Assembly (NCBI RefSeq): GCF_988242995.1
Contig: NZ_OZ547043.1
Strand: one strand, 5' to 3'
DNA: 64,000 nucleotides
The position numbers and the translations under genes are program-made. The notes beneath the pieces were generated by a model. The model saw nothing but the letters and a program-made list of their open reading frames with translations. It was not told the DNA's origin and did no database searches. Positions within the stretch are counted from its first letter, which is position 1. Each line of letters begins with the position of its first letter. Shown piece after piece: positions 23,795-48,751 of the stretch.

Positions 23795-23890
23795 ATAAAA
23801 AAATAGAGCCTGTCGACATCCGCCAGACTCTACAGTACACACAGCAGTGCATCCTCGTCTTAAATCCGGCCTGGTCTCCTCTGTGCCGGT
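23795..23890 (-). ncRNA. mcaS: McaS (IsrA) Hfq/CsrA-binding small RNA
   Basis: The reverse complement reads ACCGGCACAGAGGAGACCAGGCCGGATTTAAGACGAGGATGCACTGCTGTGTGTACTGTAGAGTCTGGCGGATGTCGACAGGCTCTATTTTTTTAT. This is close to the McaS sequence I recall. It has GGA motifs, a terminal hairpin and a U-run, and sits in the abgR-smrA spacer. Confidence 0.85.
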
Positions 23891-27267: not shown

Positions 27268-27389
27268 GCAGGTGAATGCAACGTCAAGCGATGGGCGTTG
27301 CGCTCCATATTGTCTTACTTCCTTTTTTGAATTACTGCATAGCACAATTGATTCGTACGACGCCGACTTTGATGAGTCGGCTTTTTTTT
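27268..27389 (+). ncRNA. fnrS: FnrS anaerobically induced Hfq-dependent sRNA
   Basis: GCAGGTGAATGCAACGTCAAGCGATGGGCGTTGCGCTCCATATTGTCTTACTTCC...GCCGACTTTGATGAGTCGGCTTTTTTTT matches my recollection of FnrS. Ends in a terminator hairpin plus T8. Confidence 0.92.
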
Positions 27390-31669: not shown

Positions 31670-31879
31670 TTAATTTGAATACAATGCAATTCTCGAGGAC
31701 TGAAGTTTCTCGCAATTAAAATTTATCAGTTTTACTTTCTGCTCTCTGGAAACGCCTGCTTCTTTTTTACCTGAGAGCATTTTTTCGCATTCTGATTTCG
31801 TTAGTTTAGATTTTGAATATCTTGTCCAGTTAGTAGGAGTGCCACCTTCCTTTTCAATAGTGGCGGTAATTTTATACAT
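31670..31879 (-). CDS. rcbA: Rac small protein RcbA (YdaC)
   Basis: MYKITATIEKEGGTPTNWTRYSKSKLTKSECEKML... (69 aa). Its start overlaps the 3' end of ralR by 8 nt. Confidence 0.8.
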   Translation of the reverse strand: MYKITATIEKEGGTPTNWTRYSKSKLTKSECEKMLSGKKEAGVSREQKVKLINFNCEKLQSSRIALYSN

Positions 31880-35624: not shown

Positions 35625-36337
35625 TTGTGCACAGAAAACCCCCAGCTAGGCTGGGGGTTCCGGAAAGCTTTCAGCTTTGAGCCAGTTATTAAAACCCCTT
35701 TTGATTTGTTAAAACACTTTGCGGTCTGGCAACTGCAAGTGTCAAACAAGAAATCAAAAGGGGGTCCCAATGGGGAACGAAAAGAGCTTAGCGCACACCC
35801 GATGGAACTGTAAATATCACATAGTTTTTGCGCCAAAATACCGAAGACAGGTGTTCTACAGAGAGAAGCGTAGAGCAATAGGCAGTATTTTGAGAAAGCT
35901 GTGTGAGTGGAAAAGCGTACGGATTCTGGAAGCTGAATGCTGTGCAGATTATATCCATATGCTTGTGGAGATCCCGCCCAAAATGAGCGTATCCGGCTTT
36001 ATGGGATATCTGAAAGGGAAAAGCAGTCTGATGCTTTACGAGCAGTTTGGTGATTTGAAATTCAAATACAGGAACAGGGAGTTCTGGTGCAGAGGGTACT
36101 ACGTCGATACAGTGGGTAAGAACACGGCGAAGATACAGGATTACATAAAGCACCAGCTTGAAGAGGATAAAATGGGAGAGCAGTTATCGATTCCCTATCC
36201 GGGCAGCCCGTTTACGGGCCGTAAGTAACGAAGTTGGATGCAAATGTCAGATCGTGTGCGCCTGTTAGGGCGCGGCTGGTAAGAGAGCCTTATAGGCGCA
36301 TTTGAAAAACCTCCGGCTATGCCGGAGGATATTTATT
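35625..36337 (+). mobile_element. IS200-type insertion sequence (IS200/IS605 family), copy 1
   Basis: 713-bp block repeated at 48039-48751 (constant offset 12414; all overlapping ORF-track translations identical). Left-end hairpin AACCCCCAGC-TAG-GCTGGGGGTT (35637-35659), right-end hairpin CCTCCGGC-TAT-GCCGGAGG. No flanking target duplication. Confidence 0.93.
35770..36228 (+). CDS. tnpA: IS200 Y1 (HUH) transposase TnpA
   Basis: MGNEKSLAHTRWNCKYHIVFAPKYRRQVFY...ADYIHMLVEIPPK...YY (152 aa), with HUH-like HMLV and catalytic Tyr context. Confidence 0.93.
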   Translation: MGNEKSLAHTRWNCKYHIVFAPKYRRQVFYREKRRAIGSILRKLCEWKSVRILEAECCADYIHMLVEIPPKMSVSGFMGYLKGKSSLMLYEQFGDLKFKYRNREFWCRGYYVDTVGKNTAKIQDYIKHQLEEDKMGEQLSIPYPGSPFTGRK

Positions 36338-42835: not shown

Positions 42836-42855
42836 AAAGCCTCCTAGGAGGCTTT
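42836..42855. terminator. Perfect 20-nt palindrome; bidirectional terminator at the cassette boundary
   Basis: AAAGCCTCCTAGGAGGCTTT has an 8-bp stem and a CTAG loop. It overlaps the MTase stop codon (TAG). A T-rich tract follows on the minus strand. Confidence 0.7.
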
Positions 42856-43884
42856 GATTATATTAAGCAAATGTTTTCCAATCGTTTCAGACATCTTCGG
42901 AGGGACCGCATTTCCTATTTGACGAGCCCGAGATTGCAAAGAACCAATAAATTTATAATCCAAAGGAAATGTTTGTAGACACGCTGCTTCACGAACCGAT
43001 ATTGCTCGATTTTGTGTTGGATGTCCAAAACGTCCATTTGAATAGCTAATACAACGAGTTGTTAGTCCGCTGGCTGGTTTGTCCCAACTCAAACGTCCAT
43101 ATACGTCTGTATGCCCTTTATGGTTACGATGGCATTCTAAAATCAATTCATCTGGCCAAAATTCTCGACTTCCACCTTCAGGAGTGCATTTTATTCTACG
43201 TAAATTAAGCTCTGATAAGCGTGCAGCTTCATGATCAGGAATACTATTATGCTTTTCTCCTGCTTCTATCTTCGGTAAATTAGCGATCCAGTCCTTTACT
43301 GTTGAATAGGGAGTATTTCCAACCCCATGTGTAGGAGAAGGCAATGCGACATAAAAATCCTTGGATGCAATGAGCACTAATCTTTCTCGCGTCTGTGGTA
43401 CACCGTACCACGCAGCTGGCATTACTTTATAATCTACACTATATCCCTTTGATGAAAGCATTTCTAAAAACATCATGAATGTTCCTTCATTTTTGTTAAA
43501 CTTTTGCATTCCTGGCACGTTTTCAACAAAAATAAAATCAGGCATATAATGCTCTACAAAGCGACTGAATTCCTTTAATAGATCTAATCGTGGATCATCA
43601 TTTTTCTTATTTGAGTTTTGCTTAGAGTACGGTTGACAAGGCGCACATCCTGAAAAAAGAATGTAATCATTACGATGTTTTTTTACTAACTTGTTTATGG
43701 CATTGTTGTCGATTAACCTAATGTCCGAGTTAATAAAAGCAGCCTGCGGGAAATTTGCACGAAATGAACTGGCTGCATCAACGTCGAAATCGAGGCCAAA
43801 AACAATATCCATTCCAGCTTGATGGAAACCTTGGCTGGTTCCACCACAACCGGAAAAGAAGTCAAACACTTTGATTTTTTTCAT
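42844..43884 (-). CDS. DNA (cytosine-5) methyltransferase
   Basis: All canonical C5-MTase motifs occur in order: I FDFFSGCGG, IV GCAPCQPYS, VI FVENVPG, VIII QTRERLVLIA, IX REAACLQTFP, X GNAVPP. The best start is ATG 43884 with GAGGG upstream. The track ORF uses GTG 43908. Confidence 0.9.
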   Translation of the reverse strand: MKKIKVFDFFSGCGGTSQGFHQAGMDIVFGLDFDVDAASSFRANFPQAAFINSDIRLIDNNAINKLVKKHRNDYILFSGCAPCQPYSKQNSNKKNDDPRLDLLKEFSRFVEHYMPDFIFVENVPGMQKFNKNEGTFMMFLEMLSSKGYSVDYKVMPAAWYGVPQTRERLVLIASKDFYVALPSPTHGVGNTPYSTVKDWIANLPKIEAGEKHNSIPDHEAARLSELNLRRIKCTPEGGSREFWPDELILECHRNHKGHTDVYGRLSWDKPASGLTTRCISYSNGRFGHPTQNRAISVREAACLQTFPLDYKFIGSLQSRARQIGNAVPPKMSETIGKHLLNIIKAS

Positions 43885-43907: not shown

Positions 43908-45737
43908 CTACCTAATGATACCACGGTCAAGAGCCTGAGTAATTATTTTTCTTATTTTTATAAATTCAGGCAATTCATTTTTAAGTCTTGCGGTCATCAT
44001 TTGTTGGAGGCAAAAAATTTCCTCTGCATTTACTTCTTCTTTATCATACAGGTGTTGCGCTAATAATCTTATTTGATTCTTATACAGTTCTGGATCATTA
44101 GAACTCCAGGTCTGTGAATCAATTATTTCTTTTTCACTTGGCGTAATTGCCTTTTCAATGAGTAATTGTTCGGGAGTATCAAATGGTAAATACTTCACTT
44201 TATTGAATGCATACTCAAGCACTTGCCTTTTGAGTCTATTAGATTCTTGTTCATTTTTTTTGCCATTACTACCACTGGCATTGATAATTAACTCGCAACC
44301 ATAATATTTGCACATTGTATTAACTAAATCAGCATCAGCAATTTCACTAATTCTTACTGGTTTTATTTTTTTGTTTTTATCACCATCAAGTAAAAACAAA
44401 ATATCATTGCGTTCTACCACAGCGTAACTGGGAAGATGCTTGCTTAAAATGGTCTCCGAACCACCTGGTATATAACTTACACTAAATGATAAGCTTAATC
44501 TTTCATCATTTTTAATCGCTTTATCTATAATTGCTTTAGCTAATTTATCTTCTACAATTATTGTTTTCTTGTTAATATCATGCCCTAGCTCTATAAAAGC
44601 TTCATCCGGTGCTATATTTTGAACTATTTTAGCTGTTTCACTCTCTTCATCAAAAACAAATAATTTAATGGCATCTTTGGGAAGAGTGTTCACAATAACA
44701 GGAGAATGGGTTGATATTACCACTTGATGTTTTTTCTGCTCAACAATAGAGTACAGAACATCCATCATCCTTTTTTGTGCACCAGGGTGAAGTGAAACTT
44801 CTGGTTCGTCAAGAAGAATTAATGAATTAGGTTTGGCCGAATAAATATTGAGTATTAGTGAAACTATTGCAAATTCACCACTTCCAGCAAACGCTTCTGT
44901 ATAGTTCAACTTATCAGTTGAAAGTAAAGCGGTTCCTCCTCTGGTTCCAAATAACCGATGCTCAAGAAATTTAATGACTTTATATTTTTTCCCTAATATA
45001 AATGAGACGTGCTCAACTAGTTCTGGCGCCAAGGTTATATTTTTAACAATGGTTTCCGCCCCCCAGAGTCTTAAATTACTTAGCTTTTCATCAAAAGCTT
45101 TCTTTATATATTTAGATTTGCTTCTGATATAGTCTTGCTTTGTAATTAATACACCACTCTTCTTCTTTCTTAATTTAAAATCAGAGTGATACATACATCT
45201 ATCAAATGCACTTATTTCCGATCTGAAATCTAGGAAAACCAATCCCTTCTTGATTTTTTTCCATCTGGTTGCATTACTATTAGCACCCAGATCATCCGAA
45301 ATACTCTCCATGTTATCACCAACAGATGGTCGACTTGTTTCCCAATAATCGATTGTTTTCTTGGTAGCATTGATACGTGCTTGGAGTATTTCAACTAAAC
45401 GGCCATCAGCATTTTTATATCCATATATATATCTAGGTTTAAGAGAACTGCCATCAGCAAGTTTTAGGTCAGGAAACTCATCTGTTTCAGTTGTGAACCA
45501 ATAACGAGTTATATTTTTACCATGTGGGCAACCAAATAGCGCTTTGATAACAGAACTTTTATTAGTTCCATTTTTTCCTACTAAAGCCGTTATAGGGAAC
45601 TGAAAATCGATCCTTGCATTCTGCTCTATATTTTTAAAGTATGGAAAACGGATATGTTGTATGAATGGTTCAAATTCACCGTTTTTTAACGCGCACTGGA
45701 GTGTTCGAATTTTGCTCTTGTATGCGGAAGTGCTCAT
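43908..45737 (-). CDS. OLD-like ABC-type ATPase with C-terminal Toprim/DUF4435-like region (609 aa)
   Basis: Walker A-like VGKNGTNKSS (aa 53-62), SGE signature (286-288), Walker B LILLDEPE then SLHP (306-318), H-loop STHSP (342-346), then IIVED (393-397) and LLDGD (449-453). Very AT-rich. Confidence 0.8.
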   Translation of the reverse strand: MSTSAYKSKIRTLQCALKNGEFEPFIQHIRFPYFKNIEQNARIDFQFPITALVGKNGTNKSSVIKALFGCPHGKNITRYWFTTETDEFPDLKLADGSSLKPRYIYGYKNADGRLVEILQARINATKKTIDYWETSRPSVGDNMESISDDLGANSNATRWKKIKKGLVFLDFRSEISAFDRCMYHSDFKLRKKKSGVLITKQDYIRSKSKYIKKAFDEKLSNLRLWGAETIVKNITLAPELVEHVSFILGKKYKVIKFLEHRLFGTRGGTALLSTDKLNYTEAFAGSGEFAIVSLILNIYSAKPNSLILLDEPEVSLHPGAQKRMMDVLYSIVEQKKHQVVISTHSPVIVNTLPKDAIKLFVFDEESETAKIVQNIAPDEAFIELGHDINKKTIIVEDKLAKAIIDKAIKNDERLSLSFSVSYIPGGSETILSKHLPSYAVVERNDILFLLDGDKNKKIKPVRISEIADADLVNTMCKYYGCELIINASGSNGKKNEQESNRLKRQVLEYAFNKVKYLPFDTPEQLLIEKAITPSEKEIIDSQTWSSNDPELYKNQIRLLAQHLYDKEEVNAEEIFCLQQMMTARLKNELPEFIKIRKIITQALDRGIIR

Positions 45738-45885
45738 TGTTTACTAAAGTCCATAATAGGCTATTAACAGGTTGAGGATGACATGATAACGATTTTTAAT
45801 GCAGATAAAAGAGGTTTGTTGGTTAGCACACAACAGAAAAAGTGACCTTACCGCTTGAACGAAAGGTAAGGGTAAGTAGGCTGTG

Positions 45886-46038
45886 ATGCAGCAAAAGACG
45901 ATGTTAATCGCCCTGATTGTCATCTGTATTACCGTCGTTGTGATGGCACTGGTAACAAGGAAAGACTTCTGCGAGGTACAAATCCGAACCGGTCAGACGG
46001 AGGTCGCTGTCTTCACAGCTTACGAACCTGAGGAGTGA
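45886..46038 (+). CDS. hok: Hok/Gef-family type I toxin (50 aa)
   Basis: Hand translation gives MQQKTMLIALIVICITVVVMALVTRKDFCEVQIRTGQTEVAVFTAYEPEE, closely resembling my recollection of HokD/RelF. A downstream fbi-type hairpin GGCGAGGGA-GAAA-TCCCTCGCC lies at 46046-46067. Below the ORF-track cut-off. Confidence 0.88.
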   Translation: MQQKTMLIALIVICITVVVMALVTRKDFCEVQIRTGQTEVAVFTAYEPEE

Positions 46039-46144
46039 GAGACCAGGCGAGGGAGAAATCCCTCGCCACCTCTGATGAGTCAGGCATCCTCAACGCACCC
46101 GCACTTAACCAACTTTGGCGGGTATATTTTATCTGTGAATATTT

Positions 46145-46231
46145 TTATAAAAATAATGCCCACGCACAGCATAAAACAAAAAGTATTACAGATAAAAAAG
46201 GAACGTAATGTGCAGATTTGTTGTTTTCCAT
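46145..46231 (-). CDS. Possible 28-aa hydrophobic peptide
   Basis: AAGGTGAG lies 6 nt before the ATG (46231). Translation MENNKSAHYVPFLSVILFVLCCAWALFL has a polar head and one TM-length hydrophobic tail. No recognised homology. Confidence 0.3.
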   Translation of the reverse strand: MENNKSAHYVPFLSVILFVLCCAWALFL

Positions 46232-46503
46232 ATTTACTCACCTTAATATGATTAACCCTAATAGGGTTGTTATTTCAGCGGTTTTCAAATGAGATATTAT
46301 GGTGATCTGGCAGATTTGCATAACATTAAAATTTAATTTGTTTAACCGCTTTTAATAATAAGCGTTGTTTGTATCCCAGCAATCTGTTGTTTGGTTTTTA
46401 TTCCATTAAGGTGGGGCTTTACACTGGAGCCAGTTTATTTATACTTCATACGTCAGCCTGAACAACTGGCATCTGCTGCGCTGCGCCATCGAGAGATTAA
46501 GAA

Positions 46504-48040: not shown

Positions 48041-48751
48041 GTGCACAGAAAACCCCCAGCTAGGCTGGGGGTTCCGGAAAGCTTTCAGCTTTGAGCCAGT
48101 TATTAAAACCCCTTTTGATTTGTTAAAACACTTTGCGGTCTGGCAACTGCAAGTGTCAAACAAGAAATCAAAAGGGGGTCCCAATGGGGAACGAAAAGAG
48201 CTTAGCGCACACCCGATGGAACTGTAAATATCACATAGTTTTTGCGCCAAAATACCGAAGACAGGTGTTCTACAGAGAGAAGCGTAGAGCAATAGGCAGT
48301 ATTTTGAGAAAGCTGTGTGAGTGGAAAAGCGTACGGATTCTGGAAGCTGAATGCTGTGCAGATTATATCCATATGCTTGTGGAGATCCCGCCCAAAATGA
48401 GCGTATCCGGCTTTATGGGATATCTGAAAGGGAAAAGCAGTCTGATGCTTTACGAGCAGTTTGGTGATTTGAAATTCAAATACAGGAACAGGGAGTTCTG
48501 GTGCAGAGGGTACTACGTCGATACAGTGGGTAAGAACACGGCGAAGATACAGGATTACATAAAGCACCAGCTTGAAGAGGATAAAATGGGAGAGCAGTTA
48601 TCGATTCCCTATCCGGGCAGCCCGTTTACGGGCCGTAAGTAACGAAGTTGGATGCAAATGTCAGATCGTGTGCGCCTGTTAGGGCGCGGCTGGTAAGAGA
48701 GCCTTATAGGCGCATTTGAAAAACCTCCGGCTATGCCGGAGGATATTTATT
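48039..48751 (+). mobile_element. IS200-type insertion sequence, copy 2
   Basis: Identical block to 35625-36337, in the same orientation. Inserted between the Q/tR' region and the lysis region. Confidence 0.93.
48184..48642 (+). CDS. tnpA: IS200 Y1 transposase TnpA (copy 2)
   Basis: Same 152-aa product as copy 1. Confidence 0.93.
   Translation: MGNEKSLAHTRWNCKYHIVFAPKYRRQVFYREKRRAIGSILRKLCEWKSVRILEAECCADYIHMLVEIPPKMSVSGFMGYLKGKSSLMLYEQFGDLKFKYRNREFWCRGYYVDTVGKNTAKIQDYIKHQLEEDKMGEQLSIPYPGSPFTGRK

Follow-up and report, generated by a model that had tools for sequence, protein, structure and literature searches.

Does an open reading frame (ORF) for a Hok toxin suffice to identify a type I toxin–antitoxin (TA) module? 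The locus studied here, at positions 45,738 to 46,144 of a 64,000-nucleotide stretch (the window) of contig NZ_OZ547043.1 in RefSeq assembly GCF_988242995.1, poses this question. A first-pass annotation had described it as an unannotated hok/sok-type locus next to a defence cassette, in which an antisense RNA (Sok) and a mok-like coupled frame would control the toxin gene hok. Our analysis suggested a different answer: with a probability of about 0.6, the locus is a hokD-type orphan toxin gene that is silenced in cis, and not a hok/sok/mok module. It encodes a genuine Hok toxin and has neither antitoxin nor mok, so that hok/sok TA is the wrong label for it; upstream of the start codon, nothing of the hok/sok/mok interpretation holds.

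The window is E. coli DNA, and 45740–46200 is 100% identical in ATCC 8739 and a dozen other complete genomes. According to the annotation, the hok gene sits in the nin region of a Rac-like lambdoid prophage, between the replication genes and the Q antiterminator.

Toxin gene, leader and 3' region

The following features make up the locus from the leader to the terminator:

45738–45856, plus strand: non-canonical leader of 119 nucleotides (nt), standing where the hok promoter, tac, the mok start, the Sok target and the sok gene were
45883–46038, plus strand: hok toxin ORF, 51 amino acids (aa) from GTG 45883 or 50 aa from ATG 45886, stop TGA at 46038
46046–46067, plus strand: hairpin GGCGAGGGA-GAAA-TCCCTCGCC of the 3' untranslated region (UTR), conserved with compensatory changes across loci
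46085–46102, plus strand: fbi element (canonical CCTCAACGCACCCGC at 46088–46102), invariant in all aligned hokD/hokW-type loci
46097–46133, plus strand: variant terminator-like element, ACCCGC-15 nt-GCGGGT and then TATATTTTAT, with CCCGC...GCGGG at 46097–46123

The collection that we searched comprised 5,426 complete E. coli genomes together with phage, plasmid and viral/metagenome contigs. About 4,570 of the 5,426 E. coli genomes matched the locus, and they did so only from query position 118–135 onwards, which corresponds to window 45857–45874; these partial matches were hokD and hokW-type loci of about 90% identity, and the whole stretch was present in 31 genomes only. In phage records the homology began at the same point. 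We aligned the window with 933W (in which sokW, mokW and hokW are annotated), phage Rac, PPompW, Evi and K-12 hokD. The canonical loci have a common leader of about 170 nt that starts with GCGGGTGCTTGAGGCTATCTGCC, and the 5' end of this leader is, apart from one bulge, reverse-complementary to the 3' element CCTCAACGCACCCGC; the two form the tac/fbi pair. Alignment to the hokD and hokW loci, which had been proposed as a check on the hok/sok assignment, thus told against it: homology ends at about 45857, and everything 5' of there is unrelated to hok leaders. No residual homology of the window leader to canonical leaders was found by local alignment against shuffled sequences (P 0.1–0.8). We also considered a diverged or internally deleted canonical leader and rejected it, the alignment being no better than shuffles and the common words TTGAGG and GCAGATA too short. 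In this lineage, the whole interval from DUF977/lygF up to ~30 nt upstream of the hok start is taken up by a minus-strand Dcm-methylase/ABC-ATPase cassette and 119 nt of unrelated spacer.

The toxin part of the first-pass annotation was borne out. Its 50-codon frame (45886–46038) translates as quoted and belongs to the Hok family, with 76.8 bits for Pfam HOK_GEF (PF01848; cut-off 22) over profile positions 2–42 of 42, and it is indeed very close to HokD, sharing 44 of 51 residues (86%) with the K-12 protein. The description as unannotated held for the ORF track then in use and not for RefSeq, in which the protein is annotated in every genome carrying the gene (WP_032158962.1, 'Hok/Gef family protein'), the Prokaryotic Genome Annotation Pipeline choosing the in-frame GTG 45883 and thus the 51-aa form. 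This generic name can be attributed to a score of 43.4 bits with the NCBIfam Hok subfamily model, under its cut-off of 73. A survey of 44,000 Hok homologues found M1, C16, T18, L30, C31, E32 and E41 conserved (bioRxiv 10.1101/2025.08.07.668861). Read against the published logo, the window Hok is a peptide of about 50 aa with an N-terminal transmembrane helix and the family residues C15, T17, C30, E31, E40 and Y47-E48, the conserved Leu being replaced by Phe (F29), likewise in a Rac-like prophage of E. coli GCA_017058455 (L040). No second Hok-motif ORF and no sok leader were found anywhere in the 64-kb window. The TACGAA site for TadA editing (Tyr47-Glu48) is kept at 46021–46026. Editing of A to I at TACGAA recodes Tyr to Cys in hokC, hokD and hokE (bioRxiv 10.1101/2025.08.07.668861), and the window toxin would have its second periplasmic Cys only after editing.

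The 3' side of the locus is likewise that of a hok gene. Both the hairpin at 46046–46067 and the CCCGC...GCGGG element were confirmed, and the 3' UTR, including fbi, aligns at about 90% with hok mRNA 3' regions and has the same geometry as in canonical loci. The terminator differs from the canonical form (CCCGCTTCGGCGGG with a T run), so that the remark on a partly degenerate terminal stem was right as to the difference. Degeneration as a mark of decay was rejected, for L040 has the identical variant 3' end together with the best-scoring canonical leader.

Canonical hok 3' UTRs also gave sub-threshold matches to the Rfam family isrK (RF01394; 25–33 bits, E down to 4e-4), at L003:1687–1767, L041:318–399, L004:1674–1755, L005:1692–1773 and L006:1688–1769, equivalent to window 46046–46125, and none was found on the window. 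IsrK is an Hfq-binding small RNA (sRNA) of Salmonella Gifsy-1, and a hok 3' UTR located at the same place in the nin region may have been its ancestor. In addition, an imperfect 18-nt direct repeat (15/18, core CAGATAAAA) at 45797–45814 and 46184–46201 flanks the hok module with a spacing of 387 nt, and a 20-nt AT-rich inverted repeat (46127–46146/46178–46197) lies just 3' of the terminator. These repeats, of marginal significance, could be recombination scars or a protein-binding motif.

Sok, mok and the translation-initiation region

The most specific prediction of the first-pass annotation, a Sok-like RNA at 45800–45880, found no support. The Rfam model RF01794, which spans the leader strand of hok from tac up to the AUG, scored 113.5 bits on 933W and on Evi, 111.1 on Rac, 103.9 on PPompW, 107 on ETEC4088, 117.7 on L040 and 85.9 on the contig-truncated locus L041. 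On the window it had no match at E<=1 (3 kb) or at E<=10 (411 nt), and the K-12 hokD, EC11 and O103 loci were without a match as well. We then used a simple sigma-70 position weight matrix (PWM) with 933W as the control, in which it recovered Phok, with +1 at 1355, where the Rfam model begins, and Psok, with +1 at 1475, which is the 5' end annotated for sokW. The equivalent of Psok in the window scored −0.7 versus 8.8 in 933W, Evi and ETEC4088; its −35 hexamer has changed from TTGCCT to TTACCT, and its −10 hexamer from TAACCT to CACTTT/GTCACT, with no TAnnnT. SokW folds at −29.9 kcal/mol (z −4.95) with a long terminator hairpin, and the window minus strand at 45770–45850 folds at −5.8 kcal/mol (z +0.18), no better than shuffles. 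Pairing SokW with its own mRNA gave a duplex of −140.9 kcal/mol, compared with −36.9 for the window and −40.0 for K-12 hokD; therefore, a canonical Sok supplied from another locus would find no partner in the window mRNA.

A second minus-strand promoter-like site was seen within canonical hok. In 933W it reads TTAACA-18-TAGCCT (L002:1519–1548, PWM 8.1, +1 ~1512) and overlaps the hok start codon; the equivalent site of the window, at 45878–45907, is weaker (CAGCCT, 4.6). To our knowledge, such a site over the hok start of canonical loci has not been described.

The features upstream of and around the start codon are as follows:

45842–45886, plus strand: 14-codon GTG frame (VTLPLERKVRVSRL, then stop) with a TGATG overlap at its end and no Shine-Dalgarno sequence (SD)
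45846–45871, plus strand: SD-proximal hairpin, inverted repeat CCTTACC-12 nt-GGTAAGG, present in every fold
45866–45888, plus strand: variant translation-initiation region (TIR) with six substitutions relative to all canonical loci in the alignments
45877–45879, plus strand: TAG closing the canonical in-frame mok (CAG to TAG; translation TKGKGK*AVMQ versus PKGKEKQA-MKQQK in MokW)
46013–46023, plus strand: downstream complementary box (dcb) TCACAGCTTAC, pairing with GTAGGCTGTGA (45876–45886) over the hok start in an 11-bp helix of the minimum free energy structure

In 933W, mokW is an in-frame extension that begins 57 nt upstream of hokW. The mok frame upstream of the window hok is visibly homologous to it, is closed by the TAG, and has lost its start codon and SD with the replaced region. 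The first-pass annotation had pointed instead to the 14-codon frame starting at GTG 45842, and both this frame and its TGATG overlap with hok exist. The mok-like coupling ascribed to it is another matter, as it has no SD and frames that end on the hok start are found in 41% of shuffled leaders, a rate explained by the GTGATG start itself, which supplies the stop.

The TIR differs from all canonical loci by the changes GGC to GGT, GGAG to GGGT, CAG to TAG, ATG to GTG and AAG to ATG. The start codon has become GTG and the following codon ATG, and the SD/anti-SD duplex is reduced to −5.0 kcal/mol versus −8.5 in canonical loci. The weakened SD lies in the SD-proximal hairpin, whose 5' arm is in the new leader and whose 3' arm is mutated canonical sequence; the canonical counterpart is CTCTTAC...GGCAAGGAG. 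The TIR/dcb duplex reaches −26.9 kcal/mol in the window versus −16.4 to −19.4 in canonical loci, with a pair probability of about 1.0 for a transcript from ~45807 and of 0.2 with the long leader. These folds predict that the full-length hok RNA is untranslatable whichever 5' end holds.

A sequence of events can be proposed from these results. The ancestor would have been a canonical lambdoid-prophage hok/sok locus, of which the near-identical Rac-like prophage L040 still has an example, placed in the nin region with the replication genes on one side and Q on the other. The replacement removed the hok promoter, tac, the SD and start of mok, the Sok target and the whole of sok (−10, RNA body and terminator); the toxin ORF remains, as does the homologous 3' UTR with its fbi element. 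A gene with neither antitoxin nor Sok site may then be tolerated because it is held off in cis by several putative brakes acting on the structures described. First, the mok frame, on which translation of R1 hok depends, is closed by the TAG. Second, the weakened SD would be confined in a 7-bp hairpin. Third, the start codon is GTG. Fourth, the TIR is predicted to pair with the 3' end of the coding sequence (CDS) about 10 kcal/mol more strongly than in canonical loci. Finally, if transcription begins upstream of 45771, a 10-bp helix with fbi would close the mRNA from 5' to 3'. We infer tolerance through a shut-off of translation in cis from plasmid R1, since Sok is indispensable there even at single copy, and toxicity is relieved by mutations in the mok start codon, among other suppressors (PMC9841398). 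The locus would thus be a natural case of hok tolerated without Sok, and its TIR substitutions and substitute fbi complement are candidate cis-silencers.

The new leader and the alternatives

The features within the new leader are these:

45771–45780, plus strand: tac-like decamer GTTGAGGATG, a perfect complement of CATCCTCAAC (46085–46094), overlapping the fbi core
45783–45845, plus strand: 20-codon ORF with SD GAGG (45774–45777) and ATG 45783, its stop overlapping GTG 45842 as GTGA

Disrupted tac/fbi pairing had been named beforehand as a sign of inactivated chromosomal hok loci. The canonical tac (GCGGGTGCTTGAGG) is absent from the window, and the decamer offers a substitute 10-bp complement to fbi. 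The control fold of 933W closes tac/fbi; in the window, the decamer/fbi helix has a probability of about 1.0 if the decamer is transcribed, and it closes the mRNA end to end. The best plus-strand promoter, with TTGAGG as −35, has its +1 at ~45807 and a PWM score of 8.7, not above background (median 7.9); with this start, the decamer and the start of the 20-codon ORF fall outside the RNA.

Several observations weigh against a gene that is merely shut off. The toxin ORF is intact in every copy, and dN/dS of hok (0.5–0.65) is no higher than the 0.52 between working loci. A complement of at least 10 nt occurs in 1.1% of dinucleotide-shuffled leaders (P 0.011), the net interaction of the leader with the rest of the RNA is −16.4 versus −6.6 ± 2.8 kcal/mol in shuffled leaders (P 0.005), and the new leader supplies a perfectly matched 5' arm (CCTTACC) for the SD-proximal hairpin. 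Moreover, a small ORF with SD and ATG is chained to hok by the GTGA and TGATG overlaps, an arrangement found in 0.8% of shuffles and noticed post hoc. These leader features suggest that the RNA is still under selection and possibly switched on in some condition. In addition, the promoter, the 5' end and the absence of an antisense RNA in the silenced-orphan reading are predictions from sequence. Relaxed selection on the toxin was also considered and rejected: its dN/dS equals the working-locus value, and 51 codons make it uninformative.

The same leader features lend themselves to a toxin that is controlled in cis only and still functional, which we regard as unlikely. The mRNA would start just upstream of 45771, and the GTTGAGGATG/CATCCTCAAC helix would rebuild fold-back inhibition and bury GAGG. 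Slow 3' trimming or decay, upon prophage induction or phage attack, would then remove fbi and free the SD, so that ribosomes could pass through GTGA and TGATG into hok, melting the hairpin and the TIR helix, with no antitoxin involved. Hok would help lysis as hokW does, or kill infected cells. The computed folds agree with such a switch, as GAGG is 0% unpaired in the full-length RNA and 36–39% unpaired once the 3' end is trimmed to 46075–46084. Besides the decamer, the leader energy and the relay, three complementary leader/3' segments are jointly significant (P 0.0002), the 3' UTR keeps its canonical geometry, and hokW-sokW aids lysis after induction (PMC8621323). However, there is no convincing promoter upstream of 45771, and the best candidate starts at ~45807. 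Of the three complementary 3' segments, two are shared with loci that have canonical leaders and hence did not co-evolve with this leader, and any SD-bearing route into hok is found in 12% of shuffles. An unguarded switch operated by 3' processing would also be expected to kill growing cells, like the loss of Sok in R1.

Two candidates in this context were tried and dropped. The complementary segments 45802–45810/46127–46135 and 45818–45825/46106–46113 have zero ensemble probability and their 3' partners pre-exist in canonical loci; they may reflect chance or a repeat motif. Compensatory changes in the CDS were considered because the leader pairs with hok codons 10–23 at −23.9 kcal/mol versus −9.1 for canonical CDSs, with L16I, I19V and T21M in the helices. 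This idea was rejected, since the same variants occur with canonical leaders (L041, Rac and L040), the helices were found on this very sequence, and the global energy is nearly the same with the K-12 body (−15.7 versus −16.4).

It seems to us improbable that the hok mRNA has re-evolved its cis control from unrelated sequence, with the decamer/fbi pair, the new arm of the SD hairpin and a two-step ORF relay replacing mok. If true, this would be a type I toxin free of antitoxin and regulated purely in cis, at a junction permanently tied to the methylase/ATPase cassette, and such a hok gene might serve the cassette as an addiction or suicide module.

Comparably doubtful is a new, non-homologous antisense RNA acting as the antitoxin. 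One candidate is a minus-strand RNA of about 74 nt (45836–45909) with its promoter in hok codons 11–21 (ATCACA-17-GACAAT, 45944–45916; +1 ~45909); it would end in the hairpin 45871–45846 followed by UCACUUUUUC and would lie over the hok SD and start codon. The other is the 5' UTR of the ATPase operon mRNA. The minus-strand hairpin with its run of five U resembles a terminator, both promoter hexamers read as nearer to consensus than in canonical hok when the alignment is inspected, and the best ATPase promoter candidate (+1 ~45776) would make an RNA overlapping the far 5' end of a long hok leader. The promoter scores of 5.5 and 6.4, however, are below 7.9, the median best score of random 271-nt stretches of the same window, and neither promoter nor terminator was detected at this place by a consensus scan. 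The hairpin, which has a loop of 12 nt, reaches no more than −8.4 kcal/mol and is the sole fold in the candidate RNA, and recombinants of the O103 type have lost the improved hexamers and yet persist.

As for the canonical module of the first-pass annotation, with a Sok of 55–70 nt and coupling from GTG 45842, the homology of the toxin, 3' UTR hairpin and fbi to hok loci and the short frame ending in TGATG speak for it, and with RF01794 negative where its controls are positive, Psok lost, the antisense strand unstructured, the canonical mok closed and startless and the GTG frame expected by chance, we give it hardly any credence.

Cassette, prophage and comparison with known hok loci

The neighbouring genes are listed from the RefSeq annotation, with the sources of the two cassette assignments in brackets:

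Upstream prophage genes: recET, racC, kilR, sieB, ydaV, then the DUF977 (lygF) gene
42844–43884, minus strand: Dcm-type DNA cytosine methyltransferase, second cassette gene (annotation; PADLOC MTase_II, 322 bits)
43908–45737, minus strand: ABC/OLD-like ATPase of 609 aa, 'ATP-dependent nuclease', divergent from hok (ORF, annotation, PADLOC)
Downstream prophage genes: DUF1367, DUF1364 (YbcO), DUF1133 (Q-like), lysis genes and trkG

PADLOC scored the ATPase at 117 bits for HEC-04 and 90 bits for ATPase-Toprim_I-B, AriA/PtuA-type ABC ATPases being also near, and it placed the methyltransferase among type II/Dru methylases. None of the NCBIfam models run against the cassette proteins was above its cut-off. 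The cassette probably represents a methylation-linked defence system not yet characterised.

On the left, the cassette is bounded by the end of the DUF977/lygF gene. One and the same set of 31 genomes contains the 125-nt spacer and the ATPase gene; the spacer lies between the ATPase and hok in all 17 viral/metagenome contigs that contain it, and the exact Hok protein adjoins the cassette in 10 of 10 places. Neither cassette nor leader was found outside this arrangement in the E. coli, phage or plasmid collections, and no phage or plasmid record contained the cassette. The first-pass annotation had suggested that a shared 148-nt spacer links the expression of hok and the ATPase: the 148-nt gap from the ATPase start (45737) to the hok ORF is real and the physical linkage strict, and the proposed link in expression has no support in the sequence. 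The cassette copies are at least 99% identical to each other, and their common descent is sufficient to explain the strict linkage. The cassette is frameshifted in EC11 (L010) and in L037. A Pantoea integrase island beside ttcA (L007) holds an ATPase and methyltransferase pair of 63% identity with no hok nearby, and its upstream region is unrelated to the window leader; therefore, the cassette moves independently of hok. In the Hok survey, hok was enriched in prophages and not near defence systems (12% versus 9.4% expected; bioRxiv 10.1101/2025.08.07.668861), and for this reason the adjacency of hok and cassette is better read as insertion history than as functional partnership. A 23-nt exact match to window 45769–45791 falls within an unrelated ORF of an uncultivated phage rich in AT (L014:4833–4855), and it was rejected as the source of the leader, being a chance match in a very large collection.

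Several sRNA genes were noted in the window. RalA, the antitoxin of the RalR/RalA type I TA of Rac, was found at 31695–31873 (225 bits), so the same prophage does have one type I TA that is intact. The Hfq-binding sRNA STnc490 is present twice (35637–35760 and 48051–48174, each 144.6 bits), at a distance of 12.4 kb, on either side of the prophage's early region. FnrS (27268–27385) and McaS (23795–23890) mark chromosomal DNA to the left of the prophage.

Among known systems, hok/sok of plasmid R1 (parB) shares with the window the toxin family and the logic of a tightly folded, stable mRNA in which fbi pairs with the 5' end and the hok initiation region is sequestered (PMC9841398). R1 differs in having Sok, an out-of-frame overlapping mok, switching between upstream and downstream complementary boxes (ucb/dcb) and demonstrated post-segregational killing; the window lacks Sok and mok, and its 5'–3' complement is a substitute one. 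The hokW-sokW-mokW locus (933W, Sakai prophage Sp5) belongs to the same toxin subfamily and lies in a lambdoid prophage, with about 87% DNA identity over the CDS and 3' UTR and the same 3' hairpin and fbi. Unlike the window, it has the complete leader, with Phok, a tac that pairs with fbi, an in-frame mokW, and a SokW annotated at 71 nt that has a promoter and a terminator of its own, and experiments showed hokW-sokW to be a working type I TA that helps lysis after induction (PMC8621323). The window locus is related to this working type without belonging to it.

K-12 hokD (relF, Qin prophage) resembles the window in the toxin (86% identical), in the homologous 3' UTR with fbi and in the nin-region position, and also in what is missing, namely the canonical leader, mok and sok, a match to RF01794 and a Sok target. 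The homology break is at ~45857 in the window and at the equivalent of ~45874 in hokD, about 17 nt further downstream. The replacing DNA is co-directional relBE (the end of relE) in K-12, where hokD is the third cistron, and a divergent cassette with a 119-nt spacer in the window, where hok needs its own promoter because the upstream gene is on the opposite strand. While hokD retains the GGAG SD and ATG, the window has a weakened SD, GTG and a TIR helix stronger by about 7–10 kcal/mol. The window therefore has the HokD-subfamily toxin and 3' UTR of a hokD-type orphan with no leader, mok or sok, and it is not the distal cistron of relBE; it resembles hokD in what was lost and not in transcription. 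In the open literature we found no statement on the missing leader of hokD. Pedersen and Gerdes in 1999 reportedly described hokD as 5'-truncated and other K-12 hok loci as inactivated; the truncation of hokD is confirmed here by the alignment and the lack of an RF01794 match.

After K-12 hokD, the window offers a second, independent lambdoid-prophage hok in which a moron-like insert has taken the place of the 5' control region, with the break at very nearly the same nucleotide position, which suggests that the nin-region hok leader is a recurrent insertion or recombination point. For annotation, a Hok ORF alone is not enough to call a type I TA, and the RF01794 leader test separates intact loci from orphans cleanly.

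Finally, L040 is identical to the window over ~45940–46260, including M21, F29, Q33, the TGA stop and the variant terminator, and is followed by the same DUF1367-YbcO-DUF1133 genes. It differs in that it has no cassette and that its leader is canonical (the 117.7-bit match); it encodes a Mok-Hok of 70 aa, with GGAG as the SD and ATG as the start codon. In O103/O111 strains and several contigs, the cassette, leader and GTGATG start are joined at ~45899 to a canonical hokD body with an intact terminator, and L041 combines a canonical leader with the I16 and V19 variants. These mosaics imply that hok bodies are shuffled by recombination: the body downstream of about codons 5–18 has been exchanged with other hok loci, and the junction of cassette, leader and TIR has stayed constant. 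The leader and the six TIR substitutions are unique to, and constant in, the cassette-linked segment, and L040 gives the best available picture of the state that preceded the replacement.

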